A stretch of 64,000 bases of DNA from an uncultured Alphaproteobacteria bacterium (lineage in GTDB: Bacteria > Pseudomonadota > Alphaproteobacteria > Rhodobacterales > Rhodobacteraceae). The position numbers and the translations under genes were made by a program. Positions 3,968 through 53,970 of this stretch are shown piece by piece (the stretch's first letter is position 1; the number at the start of each line of letters is the position of its first letter). The notes under the pieces are model-generated. The model searched no databases and had not been told where the DNA came from. It saw nothing but the letters and a program-made list of their open reading frames with translations. The stretch lies in NCBI GenBank assembly GCA_963798765.1, contig CAWCUP010000020.1, forward strand, positions 262,043-326,042. Reading direction: 5' to 3'.

Positions 3968-5617
3968 TCAGACCTCGGCCAGGGCGCGGGCGGCGGCTCG
4001 GGCCTCGTCGGTGACGGTGTCGCCGGCGAGCATCCGGGCGATCTCCTCGATGCGCGCCTCGGGGCCGAGGCCGGCGACCTCGGTGCGGGTCTCGCCGCGG
4101 GTTACGGTCTTGCCGACGCGCCAGTGATGCGCGCCGCGCGCGGCGACCTGGGGCGAATGCGTGACGACGAGGATCTGGGCGGTCTCGCCGAGCGCCTGGA
4201 GGCGGCGTCCGACCGCGTCGGCGGTGGCGCCTCCGACGCCGCGGTCGATCTCGTCGAAGATCAGCGTCAGGCTTTCGGACCGCGCGCTGAGGCAGACCTT
4301 GAGCGCCAGCAGGAACCGCGACAGCTCGCCGCCCGAGGCGATGCGGTCGATGGGTCCGGTCGCGGCGCCGGGATTGGTCGCGGCGGTGAAGCGCACGCGG
4401 TCGACGCCGTCGGGGCCCGGATCGCCGGGCGCGACCTCGGTGCGGAAGACGGCGCGGCCGAGTTTCAGCGGCGGAAGTTCGGCGGCCATCGCCGCGTCGA
4501 GACGTCCGGCGGCCTCCGTGCGGAGCGCGGTGAGCGCGGCGGCGGCGGCGGCGAAGGCCTCGTCCGCGGCCTTGGCCTCCGCTTCGAGCCGCGAGATGTC
4601 AGCCGCGCCGGATTCGAGCGCGCGCAGACGCGCGCGCAGATCCGCCGCCAGATCAGGCAGCGCGTCGGGCGGAACCTGGTGCTTGCGCGCGGCGGCGCGG
4701 ATCGCGAAGAGACGCTCCTCGACGCGTTCCAGCTCTCCCGGATCACCGTGCAGGCCGTCGAGCGCGGTCTCGACCGCGCTCAGCGCGTCGCCGAGTTCGG
4801 AGAGCGCGCGGCTCGCGCCCTCGATGGCGGGGTCCAGCAGACCGTCCGACTTGGCCGACGCGTCCTCGAGCCAACGCATCGCCTGGATCAGCGGACCCTC
4901 CGCGCCGTCCGGGCCCAGCGCTTCGGCCGCGCGGGTCACGTCCTCGCGGATGCGCTCCGCCGCCTGGAGCGTTCGGCGGCGGGCGTCGAGCTCCGGCTCC
5001 TCGCCGGGCTGCGGGTCGAGCTTGTCGAGCTCCGCCACGGCGTGGGCGAGGTAATCGGCGTCGCGGGCGGCGCGCTCCAGCTCCGCGCGGGCGGCGTCGA
5101 GCGCCTTGGCGGCCTCCGCGCGGGCGGTCCACGCGGCGCGGACGGCGCCGACCGGCGCGGGATCGCCGAGATAGGCGTCGAGCAGCGCGCGGTGGCCCTT
5201 CGGGTCGAGAAGGCCCCGATCGTCCTGCTGGCCGTGCAGTTCCACGAGCGTGTCCGAGAGGCCGCGCACCGTCTCGGCGGTGACGCGGCGGTCGTTGATC
5301 CAGGCCTGGCGGCGTCCGTCGGCGCCGGTGACGCGGCGCAGGATGAGATCGTCCTCGACCGGAAGACCCGCCTCAGCGAGCAGCGCGCGGGCGGGATGCC
5401 CCGGCTCGAGACGGAACCCGGCGGTGACCTCGCCCTGATCCGCGCCCTCGCGCACGAGCCCGGAGCGCGTGCGCCAGCCGAGCACGAAACCGAGCGAGTC
5501 GAGCAGGATGGATTTGCCGGCGCCGGTCTCCCCGGTCAGGACGTTGAGACCGGGGCGGAACTCGAGATCGGCCGCCTCGATCAGCACCATGTCCCGGATC
5601 GAGAGGCTGGTCAGCAT
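3968..5617 (-). CDS. recN: DNA repair protein RecN
   Basis: Walker A TGETGAGKS, signature ASGGELSR, FDEIDRGVGG; lies next to bamD. Confidence 0.97.
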   Translation of the reverse strand: MLTSLSIRDMVLIEAADLEFRPGLNVLTGETGAGKSILLDSLGFVLGWRTRSGLVREGADQGEVTAGFRLEPGHPARALLAEAGLPVEDDLILRRVTGADGRRQAWINDRRVTAETVRGLSDTLVELHGQQDDRGLLDPKGHRALLDAYLGDPAPVGAVRAAWTARAEAAKALDAARAELERAARDADYLAHAVAELDKLDPQPGEEPELDARRRTLQAAERIREDVTRAAEALGPDGAEGPLIQAMRWLEDASAKSDGLLDPAIEGASRALSELGDALSAVETALDGLHGDPGELERVEERLFAIRAAARKHQVPPDALPDLAADLRARLRALESGAADISRLEAEAKAADEAFAAAAAALTALRTEAAGRLDAAMAAELPPLKLGRAVFRTEVAPGDPGPDGVDRVRFTAATNPGAATGPIDRIASGGELSRFLLALKVCLSARSESLTLIFDEIDRGVGGATADAVGRRLQALGETAQILVVTHSPQVAARGAHHWRVGKTVTRGETRTEVAGLGPEARIEEIARMLAGDTVTDEARAAARALAEV

Positions 5618-5639
5618 CGGCGAGGCTCCGGCGGTCGCG

Positions 5640-6503
5640 TCAGCGCCACTTCCCCAGAACGACCTGGCGATAGGTCTGGTTCAGCCAGCTGTCGCCGGTA
5701 TCGGCCGGCCTGAGGCCGCGATCGGTCAGCAGGACGTAGCTGTCGCGATACCAGGTGGAGCCCTGGAAGTTGTAGCCGAGGATCGCGGCGGCGGTCTGCG
5801 CCTCCTCGACGAGACCGAGCGAGAGATAGGATTCCACGAGCCGGTGCAGCGCCTCGGGCGTGTGGGTGGTGGTCTGGTAATCCTCGACCACGACCCGGAA
5901 GCGGTTGATCGCGGCGGTGTAATGGCCGCGGCTCAGGTAGTAGCGCCCGATCTCCATCTCCTTGCCGGCGAGATGGTCGAGCGCGAGTTCGAACTTGAGC
6001 TGCGCCGACTTGGCGTATTCGCTGTCGGGATAGCGCTCGATGATGTCGCGCATCTCCTGAAGCGCCTCGAACGTGTTCGACTGGTCGCGGCCGATATCGG
6101 TGATCTGGTCGTAATAGCTCAGCCCGATCAGGAACTGCGCGTAGGGCGCGTCGACGTCGGCGGGAAAGAAGTCGAGATAGCGCCCGGCGGCGGCGCGGCT
6201 CTCGGCGTAGAGCGCGCCCTCGTGATAGGCGAAGGCCGACATCAGCATCGCCCGCTTGGCCCATTCGGAATAGGGATAGAGCCGCTCGACCTCGGAGAAG
6301 GTCTCTCCGGCCTGGCGCGGCCGTCCGTCCGCCAGAAGCGCCTCGCCGGCGAGGAAGATCTGCTGCGGGGTCTGATCCTCGATGGAGATCTCGGGCTCGC
6401 GCGAGAACGGATTGGACGGAAGATACGAGCAGCCGCCGAGCGTCAGGAGGGCCACGACCGGAACGAGCGCCAGACCGCGATTTGTCGAACGCGCAAATTC
6501 CAT
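5640..6503 (-). CDS. bamD: Outer membrane protein assembly lipoprotein BamD
   Basis: Lipobox LGGC, TPR-like repeats, KEMEIGRYYL and HTPEALHRLVE; lpxC-bamD-recN synteny. Start at 6503 or 6518. Confidence 0.93.
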   Translation of the reverse strand: MEFARSTNRGLALVPVVALLTLGGCSYLPSNPFSREPEISIEDQTPQQIFLAGEALLADGRPRQAGETFSEVERLYPYSEWAKRAMLMSAFAYHEGALYAESRAAAGRYLDFFPADVDAPYAQFLIGLSYYDQITDIGRDQSNTFEALQEMRDIIERYPDSEYAKSAQLKFELALDHLAGKEMEIGRYYLSRGHYTAAINRFRVVVEDYQTTTHTPEALHRLVESYLSLGLVEEAQTAAAILGYNFQGSTWYRDSYVLLTDRGLRPADTGDSWLNQTYRQVVLGKWR

Positions 6504-7785: not shown

Positions 7786-9321
7786 TCAGTTGGCCTGCCG
7801 ACGAAGAAATGCCGGGATGTCCACGCGCTCGCGATCCGGATCGTCGTATCCGGTTTCGAGCGCCTGGTCGTCCAGCGGCGCGGCCTGATGCGCCGCGCGC
7901 GGCCTGGCCTGCTCCTCGCGGCCGACCTGGCCCGTCATGCGGTGGATCAGGCTGTTGATCGTCAGGCGGCTCTGCCGCTCGGCGTCGCGATGCGCCGGAG
8001 CCGCGGGGGCGCGGGTCATCGGCGCCGCCTTCGGCACGTTCTGGACCGCCCGCTGGAGACGGCGCAGCGCGTCCGGAGACGGCTCGCCGCCGCGGCGCTC
8101 GTCGCCCTGCTCGATCTTGGGCTGGCCGAAGGGCGCGGTCCGCTGCGTCGGCGCGGGCTGCGGCACCTGGGCCGCCTCGGGCTCGACGAAGAGCTCCTCG
8201 CGGGCCTCGGCGACCTCGGCGTGCCGGTCGGCGAAGGTCGGCGCGCGTTCGCGCTCCATCGCCGGCTCGGGCTGCGGCTCGCGGCGCGGCTCGGCGGGGG
8301 CCGCGACCGGTTCCGAAACCGGCCGATGGGCCACCGGGGCGGTCTCCGACCGCGCGGCGGCGTCGATGCCCGTCGCCACGACCGAGACGCGCATCAGGCC
8401 GTCCATTTCCGGATCGAGCGTCGAGCCGACCATGATGTTGGCCTCCGGATCGACTTCGGAGCGGATGCGGTTCGCGGCCTCGTCGAGTTCGAAGAGGGTC
8501 ATGTCGGGACCGGCGGTGATGTTGATCAGCACGCCCTTGGCGCCCTTGAGGCTGATCTCGTCGAGCAGCGGGTTGGCGATCGCCTTCTCCGCCGCCTGGA
8601 CCGCGCGCTCCTCGCCGGAGGCCTCGCCGGTGCCCATCATCGCCTTGCCCATCTCGTTCATCACCGAGCGCACGTCGGCGAAATCGAGGTTGATGATGCC
8701 GGGACGGACCATCAGGTCGGTCACGCCCTTGACCCCCTGGTAGAGCACGTCGTCGGCCAGCGCGAAGGCGTCGGTGAAGGTGGTCTTCTCGTTGGCCAGC
8801 CGGAAGAGGTTCTGGTTGGGGATGATGATCAGCGTATCGACGTGCTGCTGAAGCTCCTCGACGCCCGCCTCGGCCTGGCGCATGCGGCGCGAGCCCTCGA
8901 ACTGGAACGGCTTGGTCACGACGCCGACGGTCAGCACGCCCATCTCGCGGGCCGCCTTGGCGATGATCGGGGCGGCCCCGGTGCCGGTGCCGCCGCCCAT
9001 GCCGGCGGTGATGAAGCACATGTGGCAGCCCGAGAGCTTCTCGACGATGTCCTCGATGCTCTCCTCGGCCGCGGCCGCGCCCACTTCGGGGCGGGCGCCG
9101 GCGCCGAGACCCTCGGTCACGCGCGCGCCGAGCTGGAGCTTGTTGTTCGAGCGCGAGTTCTGGAGCGCCTGCGCGTCGGTGTTGGCGACGACGAACTCGC
9201 AGCCTTCCAGCGCGTTCTCGATCATGTTGTTGACGGCGTTTCCGCCCGCGCCGCCGACACCGATCACGGTGATCCGGGGGCTGAGGTCGTTCGTCACCGG
9301 GATGCTGAGATTCAAAGCCAT
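7786..9321 (-). CDS. ftsZ: Cell division protein FtsZ
   Basis: [13 protein letters not shown], tubulin signature GMGGGTGTG, long alphaproteobacterial linker, C-terminal [11 protein letters not shown]. Confidence 0.99.
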
Positions 9322-9384
9322 TTTCCTGTCCGCCTGTCCTGTTTCGCCTCTTGCGTCCGCGCCCCCGCGCGATCCGCTCGCCTG

Positions 9385-9462
9385 CCCTGTGATTCGAGAA
9401 TGTAACGGAAACTTGCCACAAGGTCACGCGATTTCATGGAAATAACCCCCAAAATCTAGTAG
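9385..9462 (-). promoter_or_regulatory. Probable ftsZ promoter region with a GANTC site
   Basis: AT-rich gap between ftsA and ftsZ. Contains TGATTCG (9390-9396), a candidate GTGACC-17 bp-TACATT on the minus strand and a TTAAC half-site near 9454. Confidence 0.45.
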
Positions 9463-9504
9463 GTTAACACAAGATGGACGCGTTTTTTCGTATTGTTCCA
9501 CTAC

Positions 9505-10839
9505 TTACCAATTCTCCTTAAACCACCGGAGCGCGCGCGTGACGCGGCGCGCCCCGTGGCGGTCCGCCGGCATCTCGAAATCCCAGCATTCGTCCTGCGG
9601 ATGCGACACGTGGAGCGCGAGCCCGACCGCCGTGGCGAAGGCCGAGCCGGTGGCGGATTGCGGCAGACCCTGCACCCGCAGCGGCTTGCCGATGCGGCAC
9701 TGGCGGCCGAGGATGCGCGAGGCGCAGAGCTCGAGACCGGGGATCTGCGCGCTGCCGCCGGTCAGGACGATGCGCTGGCTGGGCAGATACTCGAAGCCGG
9801 ACGCGTCGAGCCGGGCGCGCGCCTCCTCGAAGATCTCCTCGACCCGCGGCCGCATGACGCCGATCAGCTCGGAACGGCTGATCTGGCGGCGGTCGTTGTC
9901 CCAGTCGCCGAGGATCGAGGGCAGCTCGATCATGTCGCGGTCGTCGAGACCGGTGGCGACGAGACCGCCATGCATGGTCTTGAGACGCTCCGCGTCCTGC
10001 ATCGAGACCTGGAGGCCTTGGCAGATGTCGGAGGTGACATGCGCCCCGCCCATACGCACGGCGTCGGCGTAGATCATCTGGCGACGCACGAAGACCGAGA
10101 TGCCGGTCGCGCCCGCGCCCAGGTCGATGCAGGCGGCGCCGAGCTCCTGCTCGTCCTCGACGAGGCTCGCGAGCCCGGAAGCGTAGGACGACACCACGAC
10201 GCCGGCCAGTTCGAGGTCGCAGCGCCGGATGCAGTGGAGCACGTTCCGAAGAGGCGTGGCGCCGATCGTCAGAAGATGCATGTCGACCGCGAGGTTCGAG
10301 CCGACCTGCCCGCGCGGATCGGTCAGACCGGACCGCCGGTCGAGGCAGAAATTGACCGGAAGCGCGTGGATCGCCTCCAGATCGTGTCCGTAATCGGGGA
10401 TCTCGCACGCGGCGAGCACATGACCGATGTCGCGCTCGGCCACCGCGCCGTTCTCGACCTCGGTCTCGCCGGTGACGCCGTAGGACCGGGGCCGCCCGCC
10501 GGCGAAGCTGACGATGACATGGTCGACCCGGAGGCCCGCCATCTTCTGCGCGCCCTGAATGGCGGTCCGCACCGCGCGCTCGCATTCCTCCATCGCCGAG
10601 ATCTCGCCGAAGGTGACGCCGCGCGATCGGGTGTTGGCGGCGCCGATCACCCGGAACGCGCCCTGACGAATGGTCGGGCGGCCGTCCGGCGCGGCCTGGC
10701 CGTCGTCGGGCACGAACTGCAGCACGAGACAGGCGACCTTGGCGGTCCCGATGTCGAGCACCGCGATCACGCCGCGTTTCAGCGCCGCCTCTCGCCGGGC
10801 GCGCATCGCCCTCTGCACCTCGTAAAGTTCGCGCCTCAT
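9505..10839 (-). CDS. ftsA: Cell division protein FtsA
   Basis: LDIGTAKVAC, IDLGAGAT, VLTGGSAQ; lies between ftsQ and ftsZ. Confidence 0.97.
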   Translation of the reverse strand: MRRELYEVQRAMRARREAALKRGVIAVLDIGTAKVACLVLQFVPDDGQAAPDGRPTIRQGAFRVIGAANTRSRGVTFGEISAMEECERAVRTAIQGAQKMAGLRVDHVIVSFAGGRPRSYGVTGETEVENGAVAERDIGHVLAACEIPDYGHDLEAIHALPVNFCLDRRSGLTDPRGQVGSNLAVDMHLLTIGATPLRNVLHCIRRCDLELAGVVVSSYASGLASLVEDEQELGAACIDLGAGATGISVFVRRQMIYADAVRMGGAHVTSDICQGLQVSMQDAERLKTMHGGLVATGLDDRDMIELPSILGDWDNDRRQISRSELIGVMRPRVEEIFEEARARLDASGFEYLPSQRIVLTGGSAQIPGLELCASRILGRQCRIGKPLRVQGLPQSATGSAFATAVGLALHVSHPQDECWDFEMPADRHGARRVTRALRWFKENW

Positions 10840-12664: not shown

Positions 12665-13601
12665 TCAGAGGGGAGACTCGCGCCCCACCCTCATGATTTC
12701 CCACTCTAGCTCTATTCCGCTGAAATCTAAAACCCTTTTTCGGACAAATTCTCCCAATTCCTCCAGATCGGCGGCTTTCGCCCCGCCGGCATTGATCAGA
12801 AAGTTGGCATGCTTCATCGACATCCGCGCTCCACCCATGGTTGCGCCCTTCAATCCGGCGTCCTCGATCAGCTTCCAGGCCTTGAGATCATGCGGATCGT
12901 CCGCCCGCCCCGTCGACGAGAATCCGGCCGGATTGCGGAAGGTCGATCCGGCGGAGCGGTCTTTCGTCGGCTGCGTCGCGTCGCGCCGGGCGATCTGCTC
13001 CTCCATCCGCGCGGCGAGCTCCGCCGGATCGCCCGCAGGCCCTTCCAGCACCACCTCGGTCAGCACGCAATCGGGCGGCAGATCGCTGTGGCGATAGGCG
13101 AAACCCAGATCGTCGGACCCGAAGCGTCGCGCGGCTTCCGTCCCGGAACACCGCCTCGGCGGAAACGAACACATCCGCGACATACCGCCCGTAACACCCG
13201 GCGTTCATGCGCGCGGCGCCGCCCATCGCGCCGGGGATCGTGCGCAGAAACGTCAGGTCCACCCCCGCCTCCGCCGCCCGCCGCGCCACGCGCGCGTCGA
13301 GCGCCGCGGCGCCGGCCGTCACCCGCGTCCCCTCGACGGCGATGCCGTTGAACCCGCGCCCGAGCCGCACCACCACGCCCTCGATCCCGCCGTCCCGCAC
13401 GATGAGATTGGACCCCACGCCCACCGCCATCACCGGAACCTCCGGCGCAAGCGCGCCCAGAAACGCCGCCAGATCCTCCGCGTCCGCCGGCTGGAACAGC
13501 GCGTCCGCCGGCCCGCCGACCCGCAGCCAGGTCAGGTCGGCCATAACCCGGTTTGGCGTCAGAACTCCCCGGACCGGCGGCAGTTCGCGTCTCACGTCCA
13601 T
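12665..13601 (-). CDS. murB: UDP-N-acetylmuramate dehydrogenase, split by a +1 frameshift near 13122
   Basis: The N-half ([30 protein letters not shown]) and C-half ([25 protein letters not shown]) are in different frames. The 937-nt span is 3n+1. Confidence 0.92.
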
Positions 13602-13613
13602 CCGGCCGCCTCC

Positions 13614-13730
13614 CCGGCTTTCATACTGACAAGCTTACCTGGAGAGCAGTCGTGACGCGCCAACAGGCGCGTCACCGATAAAAAGACTCGCGCGCACCCG
13701 CGCGCTCCGCCTGGCGGCAAAGGCCGCCCG
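13614..13730. repeat. Intergenic triple-hairpin repeat element, copy 1
   Basis: Shares identical blocks of 12, 13, 17, 27 and 19 nt with 33874-33988, in the same order and orientation. Confidence 0.92.
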
Positions 13731-13732
13731 CC

Positions 13733-15160
13733 TCACGCCTCGACCGGCTCCCGCGCCCCGTTCTCCTGACCGAGCCGCGCGGGCAGCGCGTTGGCCCAGC
13801 CGCTGATCGAGCCCGCCCCGAGACAGACCAGCATGTCGCCCGGCCGGCATTCGGCGCGGACGAACTCCGCCAGCGCCTCCTCGCCCGCCAGCGGCAGCGC
13901 CCTCCGGTGTCCATGCGCGATCAGACCGCCGACCAGCGTGTCGCGGCTGATCCCGTCGATGGGCGCCTCGCCGGCGGAATAGACGTCGGCGATCGCCACG
14001 GTGTCGGCGTCGTTGAAACACGCGCTGAACTGAGTGAAGAGATCGCGCAGGCGCGTGTAGCGGTGCGGCTGATGCACCGCGATGACGCGACCTTTCGTGG
14101 CCTGGCGCGCGGCCTTGAGCACGGCGGCGATCTCGACCGGATGGTGCGCGTAATCGTCGATGATGGTCACGCCGTTCCACTCGCCCACGCGGGTGAAGCG
14201 CCGGTTCACGCCCTCGAACGCGCCGAGCGCCTTGCGGATCGCCTCCTTCGGGATGCCGAGATGCCGCGCCACCGCGATGGCCGCAAGCGCGTTCGAGACG
14301 TTGTGATCGCCGGTCATCGGCAGGCGCAGACCCTTGATGGTCTGGCCTTCCGCGTTCAGCGCCACGTCGAAATCCGCTCCGCCGTCGGAGAAGCTGAGGT
14401 TCTTCCCCTGCACGTCGGCCTGCGGGTTGAAGCCGTAGGTCGCGACCCGCCGGTCGGTGATCCGCCCGACCAGCGCCTGGACCTCCGGATGGTCGATGCA
14501 GGCCACCGCCAGCCCGTAGAACGGGATATTCGACACGAACGTGTCGAAAGCCGACCGCAGAGCGTCGAAGTCGCCGTAATGGTCGAGATGCTCCGGGTCG
14601 ATGTTGGTGATGACCGCGATGGTCGCGGGCAGCCTGTTGAACGTGCCGTCGCTCTCGTCGGCCTCCACCACCATCCACTCGCCGGCGCCGATGCGGGCGT
14701 TCGATCCGTAGGCGCGGATGATGCCGCCGTTGATCACCGTCGGATCCATCCCGCCGCCGTCGAGCAGCGCCGCGACCATCGAGGTCGTCGTGGTCTTGCC
14801 GTGGGTTCCCGCCACCGCGATATTCGACTTCAGCCGCATAAGCTCCGCCAGCATCTCGGCCCGCCGCACGACCGGCAGCTTTCGCGCGCGCGCGGCGTCC
14901 AGCTCCGGATTTCCCGGCTTGATCGCCGAGGAGATCACCACGACCGTCGCGCCCTCGAGATTCTCGGCCGTCTGCCCGATGAAGATTCGCGCGCCCTTGC
15001 CCGCGAGCCGCTCGGTGATCGGCGAGGCCTTCGCGTCGGAGCCCTGCACGGTGAAACCGTGGTTGAGCAGCACCTCGGCGATGCCGGACATGCCGATGCC
15101 GCCGATGCCGGTGAAATGGATCGCCCCGATGTCATGGGGCAGGCGCGTCTGTCCGTTCAT
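13733..15160 (-). CDS. murC: UDP-N-acetylmuramate--L-alanine ligase
   Basis: [34 protein letters not shown]. Confidence 0.98.
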
Positions 15161-33500: not shown

Positions 33501-33788
33501 CTACTCCACCACCTTCGGCACGGTGAAGAAGCCCGCCCGCGCGTCGGGCGCGTTGGCGAGGATCCGGTCCCGATACCCGCCGTCCGTCACCGCGTCCTCG
33601 CGCCGGATCAGCGTCATCGGCGTCACGGATGTGGTCGGCTCGACCCCCGCCACGTCGACCGCGTTCAACTTCTCCATGAAATCGAGGATCGCCGAGAGCT
33701 CCGCCGCCAGGGGCGCCAGATCGGCCTCCGCGACCTCGATCCGCGCCAGATGCGCGACGCGACGCGCGGTATCCCTGTCGATGGACAT
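33501..33788 (-). CDS. gatC: Asp/Glu-tRNA amidotransferase subunit C
   Basis: RVAHLARI, ILANAP, FFTVPKVVE; directly upstream of gatA. Confidence 0.97.
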   Translation of the reverse strand: MSIDRDTARRVAHLARIEVAEADLAPLAAELSAILDFMEKLNAVDVAGVEPTTSVTPMTLIRREDAVTDGGYRDRILANAPDARAGFFTVPKVVE

Positions 33789-33821: not shown

Positions 33822-33850
33822 GCCTTACCCCGGACGCCTCAACGGCGCAA
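33822..33850 (-). promoter_or_regulatory. Probable gatCA promoter
   Basis: TTGCGC-17 bp-TAAGGC on the minus strand, about 35 nt upstream of the gatC ATG. Confidence 0.55.
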
Positions 33851-33873
33851 GGCCGCGCCCCGGAGGCCGCGCG

Positions 33874-33988
33874 CCGGCATTCATACTGACATGAAACCTG
33901 GAGAGCAGGACGCACGCGCCAACAGGCGCGGGCCGGACCGAAGACTCGCGCGCACCCGCGCGCTCCGAATGGCGGCAAAGGCCGCCCG
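33874..33988. repeat. Intergenic triple-hairpin repeat element, copy 2
   Basis: Diverged second copy of 13614-13730. Confidence 0.92.
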
Positions 33989-34055: not shown

Positions 34056-34403
34056 TCAGCGCGGAAGCGTGACCGAAACGGCCGGCCCCCAGCCATGCAC
34101 GCTGTCGCGCGCGCGGACCCGCACCTCGCCGACACCCACCGGGATCGCCACGCCGGAGAGCGAGCGCGTGAACGGCTGCTCGGCCACGTGCGGGTGGAGA
34201 AGCTCCCGGGTTCCCAGAACCGCGCCTTCGGGCCCGAGAACCTGCCACGCGTCGGCGTAGTGGTCCCAGCCCTCGTCGGCATGGGCCACGGTCACGTCGA
34301 ACCGCCAGGAGTTCCCGTCCCGCATCGCCGCGACGTCGACGACGGCGGCGTCCCCGCCATACGCCGCGACGGGCAGCAAGACCATGAGAAGCGGAATCCG
34401 CAT
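34056..34403 (-). CDS. Small secreted conserved hypothetical protein
   Basis: Signal peptide; FDVTVAHADEGWDHYADAW and LLHPHVAEQPFTRSL (His/Asp-rich). Confidence 0.8.
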   Translation of the reverse strand: MRIPLLMVLLPVAAYGGDAAVVDVAAMRDGNSWRFDVTVAHADEGWDHYADAWQVLGPEGAVLGTRELLHPHVAEQPFTRSLSGVAIPVGVGEVRVRARDSVHGWGPAVSVTLPR

Positions 34404-35747: not shown

Positions 35748-36905
35748 ATGGATGCCACCGCCCCGATCACCCGGGATCTTCTGACGATCCCCCGCAAGGA
35801 CGCCGGCGGCGGCGTGCCGGACATCGTCGGCATGAGCCGCGCGGGGCTGCGCGCCGCGCTGATCGAGGCGGGCACGCCGGACGGCATGGCCGGGATGCGG
35901 ACCAGCCAGATCTGGAAATGGGTCTACCACAAGGGCGTCACGGATTTCGACGCGATGACCAATCTCGGCCGGCCCCACCGCGAGATGCTGGGGGACCGGT
36001 TCGCCATCGGGCGGCCGGAGATCGTGACGCGGCAGGTCTCGGAGGACGGCACGCGGAAATACCTGCTCCGGATCGCGGGAGGGCATGAGATCGAGACGGT
36101 CTACATCCCCGAGACCGACCGGGGCACGCTCTGCGTCTCGAGCCAGGTCGGCTGCACGCTGACCTGCTCGTTCTGCCACACCGGCACCCAGCGGCTGGTG
36201 CGCAACCTGACGCCGGCCGAGATCGTCGGCCAGATCATGGTCGCCCGCGACGATCTCGACGACTGGAACCGCGGGCCGGACGAGAAGCGGCTGGTCTCGA
36301 ACATCGTGCTGATGGGCATGGGCGAGCCGCTCTACAACACGGACGCGGTTCGCGACGCGATGCTGATCGCGATGGACGGAGAGGGGATCGCGCTGTCGCG
36401 CCGCCGGATCACGCTCTCGACATCGGGGGTCGTGCCGGAGATCGCGCGGGTCGGCGAGGAGATCAACTGCCTGCTCGCGATCTCGTTTCATGCCACGACC
36501 GACGCGGTGCGGGATCAACTCGTGCCGATCAACAGGAAATGGAACATCGCGGCGCTGCTCGACGCCTGCCGGGCCTATCCGCGGGCGTCGAACTCGGAGC
36601 GGATCACCTTCGAGTACGTCATGCTCAAGGGGGTCAACGACTCGGACGCGGACGCGCGGCGGCTCGTGAAGCTGATCGCGGGCATACCTGCAAAGATCAA
36701 CCTGATCCCGTTCAACCCCTGGCCCGGCGCGCCCTACGAGCGGTCGGACCCCGACCGGATCGAGGCCTTCGCGGCGATCGTGAACAGGGCGGGCTATTCC
36801 AGCCCCGTCCGGCGGCCGCGCGGCGAGGACATCATGGCGGCCTGCGGCCAGCTCAAGAGCGCCACGGAGCGCGCGCGGCGGGAGCGTCCGGCGTCCGCCA
36901 CCTGA
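35748..36905 (+). CDS. rlmN: Dual-specificity 23S rRNA/tRNA m2A methyltransferase
   Basis: Radical SAM motif [33 protein letters not shown]. Confidence 0.97.
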
Positions 36906-52977: not shown

Positions 52978-53463
52978 ATGGCTCTCGCGATCGGAGACAG
53001 ACTGCCCGACGCTTCGCTGGTCAAAATGGGAGAGGACGGTCCGGAGACGGTGGATCTCGCCGCGCGCCTCGCGGGCCGCAAGGTCGTCGTCTTCGCGCTG
53101 CCCGGCGCGTTCACCGGCCCCTGCACCACGGCGCACGTGCCCAGCTTCATCCGCACCGCCGACGACTTCCGCGCCAAGGGCGTGGACGAGATCATCTGCA
53201 TCGCCGTCAACGACCCCTTCACGCTGAAAGCCTGGGGCGAGAGCACGGGGGCGACGGCGGCCGGGATCACCATGCTCGGCGACGCGGACGGCGCGCTCAC
53301 GCGCGCGCTCGGAATGGAGTTCACCGCGCCCGAGCTCGGCCTCATCGGCCGTTCGAACCGCTACGCGCTTCTGCTGGAGGACGGCGTGATCACGCATGCG
53401 AACGTCGACGAGCCCGGGACCTGCGACATCTCCACCGGCAAATCGTTGCTGGCCACGCTCTGA
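52978..53463 (+). CDS. Peroxiredoxin, Prx5 subfamily (copy 1)
   Basis: PGAFTGPC (PxxxTxxC), VNDPF, RSNRYA; 161 aa. Confidence 0.92.
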   Translation: MALAIGDRLPDASLVKMGEDGPETVDLAARLAGRKVVVFALPGAFTGPCTTAHVPSFIRTADDFRAKGVDEIICIAVNDPFTLKAWGESTGATAAGITMLGDADGALTRALGMEFTAPELGLIGRSNRYALLLEDGVITHANVDEPGTCDISTGKSLLATL

Positions 53464-53484
53464 ATGCCGGAGATCGCATCGACG

Positions 53485-53970
53485 ATGATCGCCGTCGGCG
53501 ACCGCCTGCCGGACGCCGACCTGCTGCGCATCGGCGCCGACGGCCCCGAGACCGTCCGTCTCGGGGAGCTTCTCGCCGGGCGCAGGGTGGTGCTCTTCGC
53601 CCTGCCGGGAGCGTTCACCCCGACCTGCGACTCGGCGCATCTGCCGAGCTTCATCCGCGCCAAGCCCGGTTTCGACGCCAAGGGTGTCGACGAGATCGTC
53701 TGCGTCTCCGTCAACGACGCGCACGTGATGCGGTACTGGGGCGAGCAGTCCGGCGCCGCGAAGGCGGGGATCACGCTCCTGGCCGACGCGGACAGCGCGT
53801 TCACCAGGGCCGTCGGCATGCAGTTCAGCAACCCGGCGGTCGGCTTCCATGACCGGTCGCGGCGCTACGCGATGCTGGTCGAGGACGGCGTGGTCGGCGT
53901 GCTGAACGTCGAGGAGAAGACCGGACAATGCGGGATCAGCGCGGGCGAGACGCTGCTCGAAGCGGTCTGA
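53485..53970 (+). CDS. Peroxiredoxin, Prx5 subfamily (copy 2)
   Basis: PGAFTPTC, VNDAH, RSRRYA; 161 aa. Confidence 0.92.
   Translation: MIAVGDRLPDADLLRIGADGPETVRLGELLAGRRVVLFALPGAFTPTCDSAHLPSFIRAKPGFDAKGVDEIVCVSVNDAHVMRYWGEQSGAAKAGITLLADADSAFTRAVGMQFSNPAVGFHDRSRRYAMLVEDGVVGVLNVEEKTGQCGISAGETLLEAV

Follow-up and report, generated by a model that had tools for sequence, protein, structure and literature searches.

Among the described bacterial repeats, REP/BIME elements with their RAYT partners are among the closest to the repeat studied here. They are intergenic hairpins that lack terminal inverted repeats (TIRs) and target duplications, and the hairpins are imperfect, with conserved mismatches. 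They have a long inheritance and genome-specific variants, are presumed to be handled as single-stranded DNA (ssDNA), and have by-product effects on termination and mRNA stability. The repeat shares these features or, for the handling as ssDNA and the effects on RNA, would share them. REPs, however, are single palindromes of 20–40 nt that carry a GTAG/CGTC tag and occur hundreds of times per genome, whereas the repeat is ~115 nt long, has three different hairpins and an arm, and is present in about ten copies per genome. In the family alignment, the feet of the hairpins show no evident GTAG or CGTC tag, and no RAYT gene was found beside the repeat at ~22 annotated sites. By its size, its copy number and the missing tag, the repeat is outside the REP definition.

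The ends of IS200/IS605 elements and of their miniature derivatives (PATEs) also resemble the repeat. They have asymmetric ends without TIRs or duplications, hairpins near the ends, a short motif beside one end, and an orientation bias with respect to replication. For IS200/IS605, it is the top strand that occupies the lagging-strand template (PMC3333891, PMC6006769). The target motif of IS608 lies 5′ of whichever strand forms that template, and its hairpins are 19 and 10 nt from the ends, whereas those of the repeat are ~33 and 1 nt from its ends. The motif beside the repeat, CCGG, is weak and on the other strand, and neither tnpA nor tnpB was seen at the sites examined. As the family is defined, the repeat is no member of IS200/IS605 either.

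Caulobacter CIR and Rhizobium RIME elements, which were compared by description only, are likewise from Alphaproteobacteria. Like the repeat, they are ~100–190 bp in length, strictly intergenic, contain large palindromes, and number in the tens per genome. CIR has a GANTC site; of the 31 copies of the repeat first aligned, 22 have one and 9 do not. We know of no report of a replication-linked orientation for CIR or RIME. ERIC in enterobacteria and SPRITE in pneumococcus are similar in size, lie within mRNAs, and have hairpins that can act as terminators or as orientation-dependent RNA stability elements; ERIC is MITE-like and has TIRs, whereas the repeat is without inverted repeats. The repeat itself falls outside the definition of a MITE, having neither TIRs nor a target duplication. 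The RRS (Replication Risk Sequences) of E. coli are, like the repeat, GC-rich, structured, few, and conserved in position, and their action depends on which strand is the lagging one. They differ from the repeat in being 222 bp long, in two copies, symmetric around the terminus, and in forming a G-quadruplex, whereas the repeat forms hairpins and has more copies and a patchy distribution.

Two Copies of the Repeat in the Window

The window, i.e., the whole 64,000 nt stretch of DNA that was analyzed, contains two copies of the repeat, one in the dcw operon and one upstream of gatCAB. The copies, their parts, and the adjacent genes are as follows.

12666–13601, minus strand: murB (Pfam); start codon at 13599–13601, 17 nt past the TTTCAT end of copy 1
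13612–13729, plus strand: copy 1 of the three-hairpin repeat (covariance model 141.3 bits, E = 4e−37)
13614–13618, plus strand: weak flank motif CCGG(C), directly 5′ of copy 1 (0.5–0.8 bit/position)
13619–13651, plus strand: non-palindromic 5′ arm of 33 nt, in which TTTCATA and CCTGGAGAGCAGTC are nearly invariant
13652–13675, plus strand: helix 1 of copy 1, 10 bp, with a 6 bp GC core at 13656–13671 and the loop AACA at 13662–13665
13676–13689, plus strand: linker 1 of copy 1, closing with GACTC (GANTC) at 13685–13689
13690–13705, plus strand: helix 2 of copy 1, GCGCGC-ACC(C)-GCGCGC, with the loop ACCC
13713–13728, plus strand: helix 3 of copy 1, GGCGGC-AAAG-GCCGCC, with the loop AAAG, 4 nt from the murC stop
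13733–15160, minus strand: murC (Pfam); stop codon at 13733–13735, adjoining helix 3 of copy 1
33501–33788, minus strand: gatC; copy 2 lies 83 nt upstream
33822–33850, minus strand: promoter-like site of gatC (TTGCGC, 17 nt, TAAGGC), outside the repeat in the stretch that separates copy 2 from gatC
33872–33987, plus strand: copy 2 of the three-hairpin repeat (covariance model 110.5 bits, E = 1.5e−28)
33912–33933, 33948–33963, and 33971–33986, plus strand: helices 1, 2, and 3 of copy 2, respectively

The covariance-model scores put the match between the two copies above chance, and the copies are one element. Pairwise alignment gave 85% identity overall and recovered the five identical blocks that the first-pass annotation of this DNA had described; a separate repeat search found a 48 nt block at the 3′ end of the copies at 96%. 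The three 6 bp GC stems with their loops AACA, ACCC, and AAAG, also described there, were confirmed by reading the sequence. The two paired changes noted in helix 1 are exactly as had been reported, with G13654–C13673 in copy 1 becoming C33913–G33932 in copy 2 and T13653–A13674 becoming G33912–C33933. The pair A13655–T13672 of copy 1 is an A·G mismatch in copy 2. A weak match to the covariance model in a coding region (35815–35932, minus strand, 18.9 bits, E = 0.004) is probably due to chance.

Both copies do carry a GANTC site, at 33943–33947 in copy 2, but the associated remark that this matches a GcrA preference is weak: among the first 31 copies to be aligned, no more than 22 have GACTC and 9 lack it.

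As was proposed, copy 1 fills the gap between murC and murB, which is 131 nt in the window, and the mRNA of the dcw operon contains its reverse complement. The minus strand of 13614–13618 belongs to the Shine–Dalgarno (SD) region of murB. Copy 2 lies between a 115-aa ORF (34056–34403, minus strand) and the gatCAB promoter. The promoter-like site of gatC is kept in four species (the window, L058, L059, and L060), including those that are free of the repeat. Both copies are TTTCAT-first on the plus strand and are thus antisense to the dcw and gatCAB operons. The murB gene of the window is split between two frames (FAD_binding_4 in 12888–13601 and MurB_C in 12665–13183, minus strand); it is intact, at 311 aa, in a public metagenome-assembled contig of 973 kb that is 99.7% identical to the window (L049). 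Homologues of MurC and GatA indicate an Amaricoccus-like organism as the source of the window. The frame break is a 1 nt indel near codon 160, and because murB is essential it is most likely an assembly error.

Structure and Covariation

The order of parts in the repeat is a 33 nt arm, helix 1, a linker of 13–15 nt, helix 2, a linker of 7–8 nt, and helix 3. In the family alignment, conservation sets in sharply at TTTCAT (13619 in copy 1) and ends 1 base past helix 3 (13729). The end hairpins are at different distances from the boundaries, 1 nt at one end and 33 nt at the other. The middle of the arm occurs in three variants (AAGCTT, ATGAAA, and GGTTTGCTA), and folding leaves the arm mostly unstructured in the commonest of them. 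The stem sequence of helix 1 varies by genome and by locus, and its AACA loop is kept even with a wholly different stem. Across the family, linker 1 is 13–15 nt long; A accounts for 49% of its bases on this strand and T for 7%, which makes the other strand U/T-rich.

Compensatory changes are not confined to the two in the window. A structure-blind MAFFT alignment has 94% of its cells paired, and its covariation score was attained by 0 of 500 shuffles. The model-guided alignment of 34 copies has 96.8% of cells paired, with both sides changed in 14 of the 22 pairs. These doubly changed pairs are in helix 1 (9/10) and helix 3 (5/6). Helix 2 behaves differently: five of its six pairs never vary, and 100% of its cells are paired in the 34 copies. 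Taken together, the invariance of both helix 2 and the unpaired arm and the conservation of the loops suggest recognition of specific sequences by a protein, beyond a stable fold.

We found no TIRs. The ends, TTTCATA... and ...GGCCGCCC, have no mutual complementarity. Comparison of the flanks of 30 copies also revealed no direct repeat that would mark a target-site duplication, so that what had been seen for the two window copies extends to the family. The flank motif is CCGG in ~60% of copies and CGG in ~80%, at 0.5–0.8 bit/position. This CCGG(N) motif may reflect a preferred target site or the decayed remnant of an end.

Several further features were considered and rejected. A fourth hairpin in the arm folds in the ATGAAA and GGTTTGCTA variants and is absent in the commonest variant. 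A pseudoknot in which the 5′ (N)UUU pairs with AAA(N) of the helix 3 loop would be formed in 85% of cells, with six double changes and eight broken cells; the double changes trace to two genomes only, and the pseudoknot is unsupported. As to small ORFs, no conserved start codon follows the SD-like GGAGAG, and the short frames that open at the conserved minus-strand ATGAAA close at or near the next gene start only at L004, L007, and copy 1.

Distribution of the Repeat Family

We collected 34 copies of the family, of 112–118 bp, from Amaricoccus and related Rhodobacterales genomes and from metagenomes. In species-representative genomes, a pattern based on the 5′ arm returned 19 true copies, with as many as six in one genome, and the hosts of these copies are all Amaricoccus or Rhodobacterales/Alphaproteobacteria bins. 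A pattern based on hairpin 2 only found 11 further copies in metagenomes, in which the 5′ arm is conserved even though the pattern ignored it. The covariance model, built from 31 copies, detected nothing new in the collected loci beyond orthologous copies, and one unselected extra copy in ~500 kb scanned. In three DNA metagenomes, the depth over 13612–13731 is ~ten times that of the flanks. Metagenome depth and the covariance-model scans together suggest roughly ten copies per genome.

The repeat had no match in Rfam 15 even at E ≤ 10, and a gathering-score Rfam scan of the window matched only RNase P RNA and a tRNA. There was likewise no match to the repeat in PLSDB plasmids by distant blastn. 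A literature search with the arm sequence, on both strands, returned chance primer matches only. The repeat is a real, undescribed family of structured intergenic repeats. The first-pass annotation had cautiously proposed a structured repeat family or RNA motif that matched no known family (a REP/RIME-like mRNA element, a HUH-transposase substrate, or a small RNA), and this interpretation is supported. With covariation of textbook quality and no entry in Rfam, the family is worth curating.

The hairpin 2 pattern also drew a second, unrelated conserved element of ~160 nt (GGCGGTTGCCGG...CTGTCAGGGCTGCCGG...GGCGGCGGAGGAACCGATTTTGT...GGCAAAATTGGAGGGG). This element is found in five metagenome contigs (L030 4264–4427, L031 2951–3115, L044, L047, and L048) and had no Rfam match at E ≤ 0.01.

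Orientation Relative to Replication

GC skew over loci of 2–13 kb was used as a proxy for the direction of replication. Loci were oriented by the repeat, the repeat itself was excluded, and the skew of the flanks was calculated for 24 independent (unique) sites. On the TTTCAT-first strand, the GC skew of the flanks is negative at 22/24 sites, with a mean of −0.068 (sign test, p = 3.6e−5). The AT skew of the flanks has no association with the orientation of the repeat. In a given locus, the skew has the same sign for genes of either strand; pooled on the repeat's strand, it is −0.058 for co-oriented genes and −0.046 for anti-oriented genes. Because genes of both strands share the sign, the skew is of the replication type and not a coding-strand effect. 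The orientation rule is obeyed at all eight sites with convergent genes and at all five sites flanked by genes on the repeat's strand, which excludes the direction of the neighboring genes as its cause. In the window the skew is confounded, since the genes around both copies all lie on the minus strand. dcw clusters are usually co-oriented with replication, which agrees with the orientation rule.

With GC skew as the proxy, the TTTCAT-first version of the repeat is on the C-rich lagging strand. Its complement is thus on the G-rich strand, the lagging-strand template, which is transiently single-stranded at the fork. An orientation that follows replication shifts the options given by the first-pass annotation toward HUH-type ssDNA. 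It points to handling of ssDNA at the fork and is a lead to an enzyme, or to a fork-related host function, in Alphaproteobacteria.

Orthologous Copies and Patchy Presence

Comparison of flanks identified orthologous copies in different species. Copy 1 of the window (w1) corresponds to those in L050/L055 and copy 2 (w2) to those in L043/L058; further orthologous pairs are L002/L028, L004/L008, L013/L021, and L029/L038. The repeats of orthologous pairs are 87–98% identical where alignable throughout, and the non-coding DNA on the helix 3 side is often unalignable. Presence at a given site is patchy. Upstream of gatC, the repeat is present in the window, L043, and L058, and there is none in L059 or L060. 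In the murC–murB gap, it is present in L049, L050, L055, and L006, and there is none in L051, L052, L053, L054, L056, or L057. The gap itself varies as follows.

L057: 2 nt
L053: 25 nt
L051: 54 nt
Window: 131 nt, which is the repeat
L055: the repeat plus an extra hairpin
L052: 430 nt, with an insert of lower GC
L054 and L056: about 620 nt, with an extra ORF of ~200 aa
L006: 1.7 kb

The murC–murB junction is a hotspot of change among Amaricoccus. In A. solimangrovi (L051), the gap holds two small hairpins that share a GCGGAC stem. In L006, a Rhodobacterales bin (4545–6100), the repeat is upstream of murB and its helix 3 end adjoins a diverged duplicate of the first ~31 murB codons, and a further ~1.5 kb of DNA then separates this duplicate from murC. 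Such an arrangement could be a recombination scar or a misassembly of the metagenome-assembled genome at the repeat.

Orthologous copies can differ by replacement of a whole variant of helix 1 or of the arm, as between L004 and L008, between w2 and L043 or L058, and between L013 and L021. Wholesale replacement of this kind resembles turnover or gene conversion and not slow drift. DNA on the helix 3 side is often non-homologous or contains indels (w2/L043/L058, L013/L021, L004/L008, and L055), and the arm side is syntenic. Copies of the repeat may thus be points of rearrangement or insertion. The repeat also explains assembly breaks and odd gaps in the genomes of Amaricoccus, a genus that is common in activated sludge and soil.

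A Possible Mechanism

We tentatively favor reading the repeat as a non-autonomous element that is handled as ssDNA, with the logic of REP and IS200/IS605 elements and not their geometry, although we would stop short of calling this probable. The reading is suggested by the combination of hairpins, asymmetric ends without TIRs or target duplications, and a replication-linked orientation, which is known from elements handled by HUH Y1 enzymes. The hairpins would fold in ssDNA at the replication fork, and an enzyme encoded elsewhere in the genome would cut and join at the ends of the repeat. Selection would afterwards spare only the copies between genes. The patchy orthologous gaps and the swapping of subfamily variants at one site are in support of such handling.

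Other observations weigh against it. A tblastn search with an IS200 TnpA query gave no match in 600 kb. The CCGG is 5′ of the C-rich strand, i.e., on the leading-strand template and not on the lagging-strand template as the geometry of IS608 would have it. Mobility as ssDNA also sits poorly with the low copy number and with the persistence of several copies at orthologous sites, where they are better conserved than the adjacent non-coding DNA. This persistence is also compatible with gene conversion or with selection for a host function.

As a side effect of an element handled as ssDNA, transcripts that cross a copy would gain three stable GC hairpins. The murC–murB mRNA would contain, in order, helix 3, helix 2, the U-rich tract, helix 1, and the AU-richer arm directly before the murB ribosome-binding site. 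In the mRNA, the hairpins could attenuate transcription, or they could serve as a barrier to processing or to 3′ exonucleases, as in REP and ERIC.

Genomic Sites and Alternative Explanations

All copies are intergenic, and their neighbors are unrelated housekeeping genes, e.g., hemE, ctaA, pgm, guaA, greA, chorismate synthase, and ABC transporters. No recurrent neighbor gene or theme was found at the repeat sites, and there was no transposase or integrase beside the repeat at ~22 annotated sites. In 15/20 sites, the helix 3 end faces the 3′ end or stop of an opposite-strand gene, the median gap being 11 nt. At 21 sites, the arm end faces a gene 3′ end in 13 and a gene start in 8. Copies are often no more than 15 nt from a stop codon. 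At three sites (L012, L015, and L017) the repeat is the complete spacer between two convergent housekeeping genes, and sites between divergent genes are rare. The repeat is also present at three tight operon junctions, namely murC|murB, an ABC ATPase|permease junction (L007), and the permease site of L004/L008, all with the reverse complement in the mRNA. Copies in the essential dcw operon, directly before murB, and in ABC-transporter operons offer a test case for inserts that are tolerated or used in differential operon expression.

The strictly intergenic placement, the enrichment at gene 3′ ends, and the convergent genes that the repeat alone separates would all be expected of a cis-acting RNA element selected by the host, in the manner of REP, ERIC, or SPRITE. 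The hairpins would end or stabilize transcripts, or would form an intercistronic barrier to processing or decay, with an effect that is perhaps direction-dependent. We consider this account possible, if on the unlikely side. It gains from the scarcity of canonical terminators in this genome, from the position of copy 2, which is where an insulating terminator would be expected, between the upstream gene and the gatC promoter, and from the common orientation at all tight operon junctions. The repeat is also present within longer transcripts, according to metatranscriptome contigs that carry neither strand nor end information. On the minus strand, a U-rich tract follows helix 2 and the intrinsic-terminator scan flags copy 1, but copy 2 fails the scan, and throughout the family the tract starts 4–5 nt past the stem, a spacing that suits intrinsic termination poorly. 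Strong termination in the murC–murB gap or within ABC-transporter operons would, moreover, be harmful. The orientation of the repeat tracks replication and not the direction of the neighboring genes; sites with lagging-strand genes keep the replication rule, so that the orientation in the RNA is reversed there. Nor does an RNA element of this kind explain why the 33 nt unpaired arm and helix 2 are invariant or why the loops are conserved.

It is rather unlikely that the repeat is instead either a replication-polar fork element kept by the host, for pausing, gaps, priming, or relief of topology, or the substrate of a new ssDNA mobility system unlike both REP and IS200/IS605. The host element taken alone, acting on the fork through a structure on the lagging-strand template as a site of polar pausing, gap formation, or priming (the logic of RRS or Ter), is improbable. 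The RRS of E. coli (PMC10592627) are a precedent, being structured, GC-rich repeats with an action on the lagging strand, and the nearly fixed orientation relative to replication-type strand asymmetry, the low copy number of ~ten per genome, and the conservation of orthologous copies above neighboring non-coding DNA are what such an element would have. Its presence at a given site is patchy even among close relatives, however, and a transposon with an insertion bias is a simpler account of the orientation data.

A family of small RNAs, independently expressed or processed from the TTTCAT-first strand with the arm as seed or protein-binding site, would suit the A-rich unpaired regions of this strand (33% A vs. 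15% in the genome), its folding z-scores (−4.6 and −3.9 vs. −1.8 and −1.5 on the other strand), and the conservation of the single-stranded arm and loops while the stems covary, but it is highly improbable: there is no promoter-like site or conserved upstream sequence, several sites are 5–15 nt from coding regions on both sides and leave no room for a promoter, helix 3 has no U-tail, metatranscriptome contigs run across both boundaries and show no discrete ends, the strand is antisense to the dcw and gatCAB operons in the window, and wobble pairs favor neither strand (three G·U vs. three A·C). The missing promoter, the lack of room, and the absence of discrete ends shift the options of the first-pass annotation away from its small RNA. 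In or beside either window copy, no sigma-70 promoter was found, and inspection of the arm by eye for sigma-54, sigma-32, and ECF motifs yielded nothing convincing. The GGTAAG of the arm, which resembles the −10 region of gatC, is retained by only one of the three arm variants.

Other Observations in the Window

The GC skew of the window flips from positive to negative at ~9000–10000, and genes of both strands have positive skew before this point. The flip near 9–10 kb could mark the edge of a replichore or the breakpoint of a rearrangement. The GC skew is near zero past 36 kb. At 52985–53895 there are two tandem copies, spaced by 504 nt and ~71–72% identical, with two adjacent ORFs of ~170–190 aa; from their sequence, these repeats look like a tandem gene duplication.
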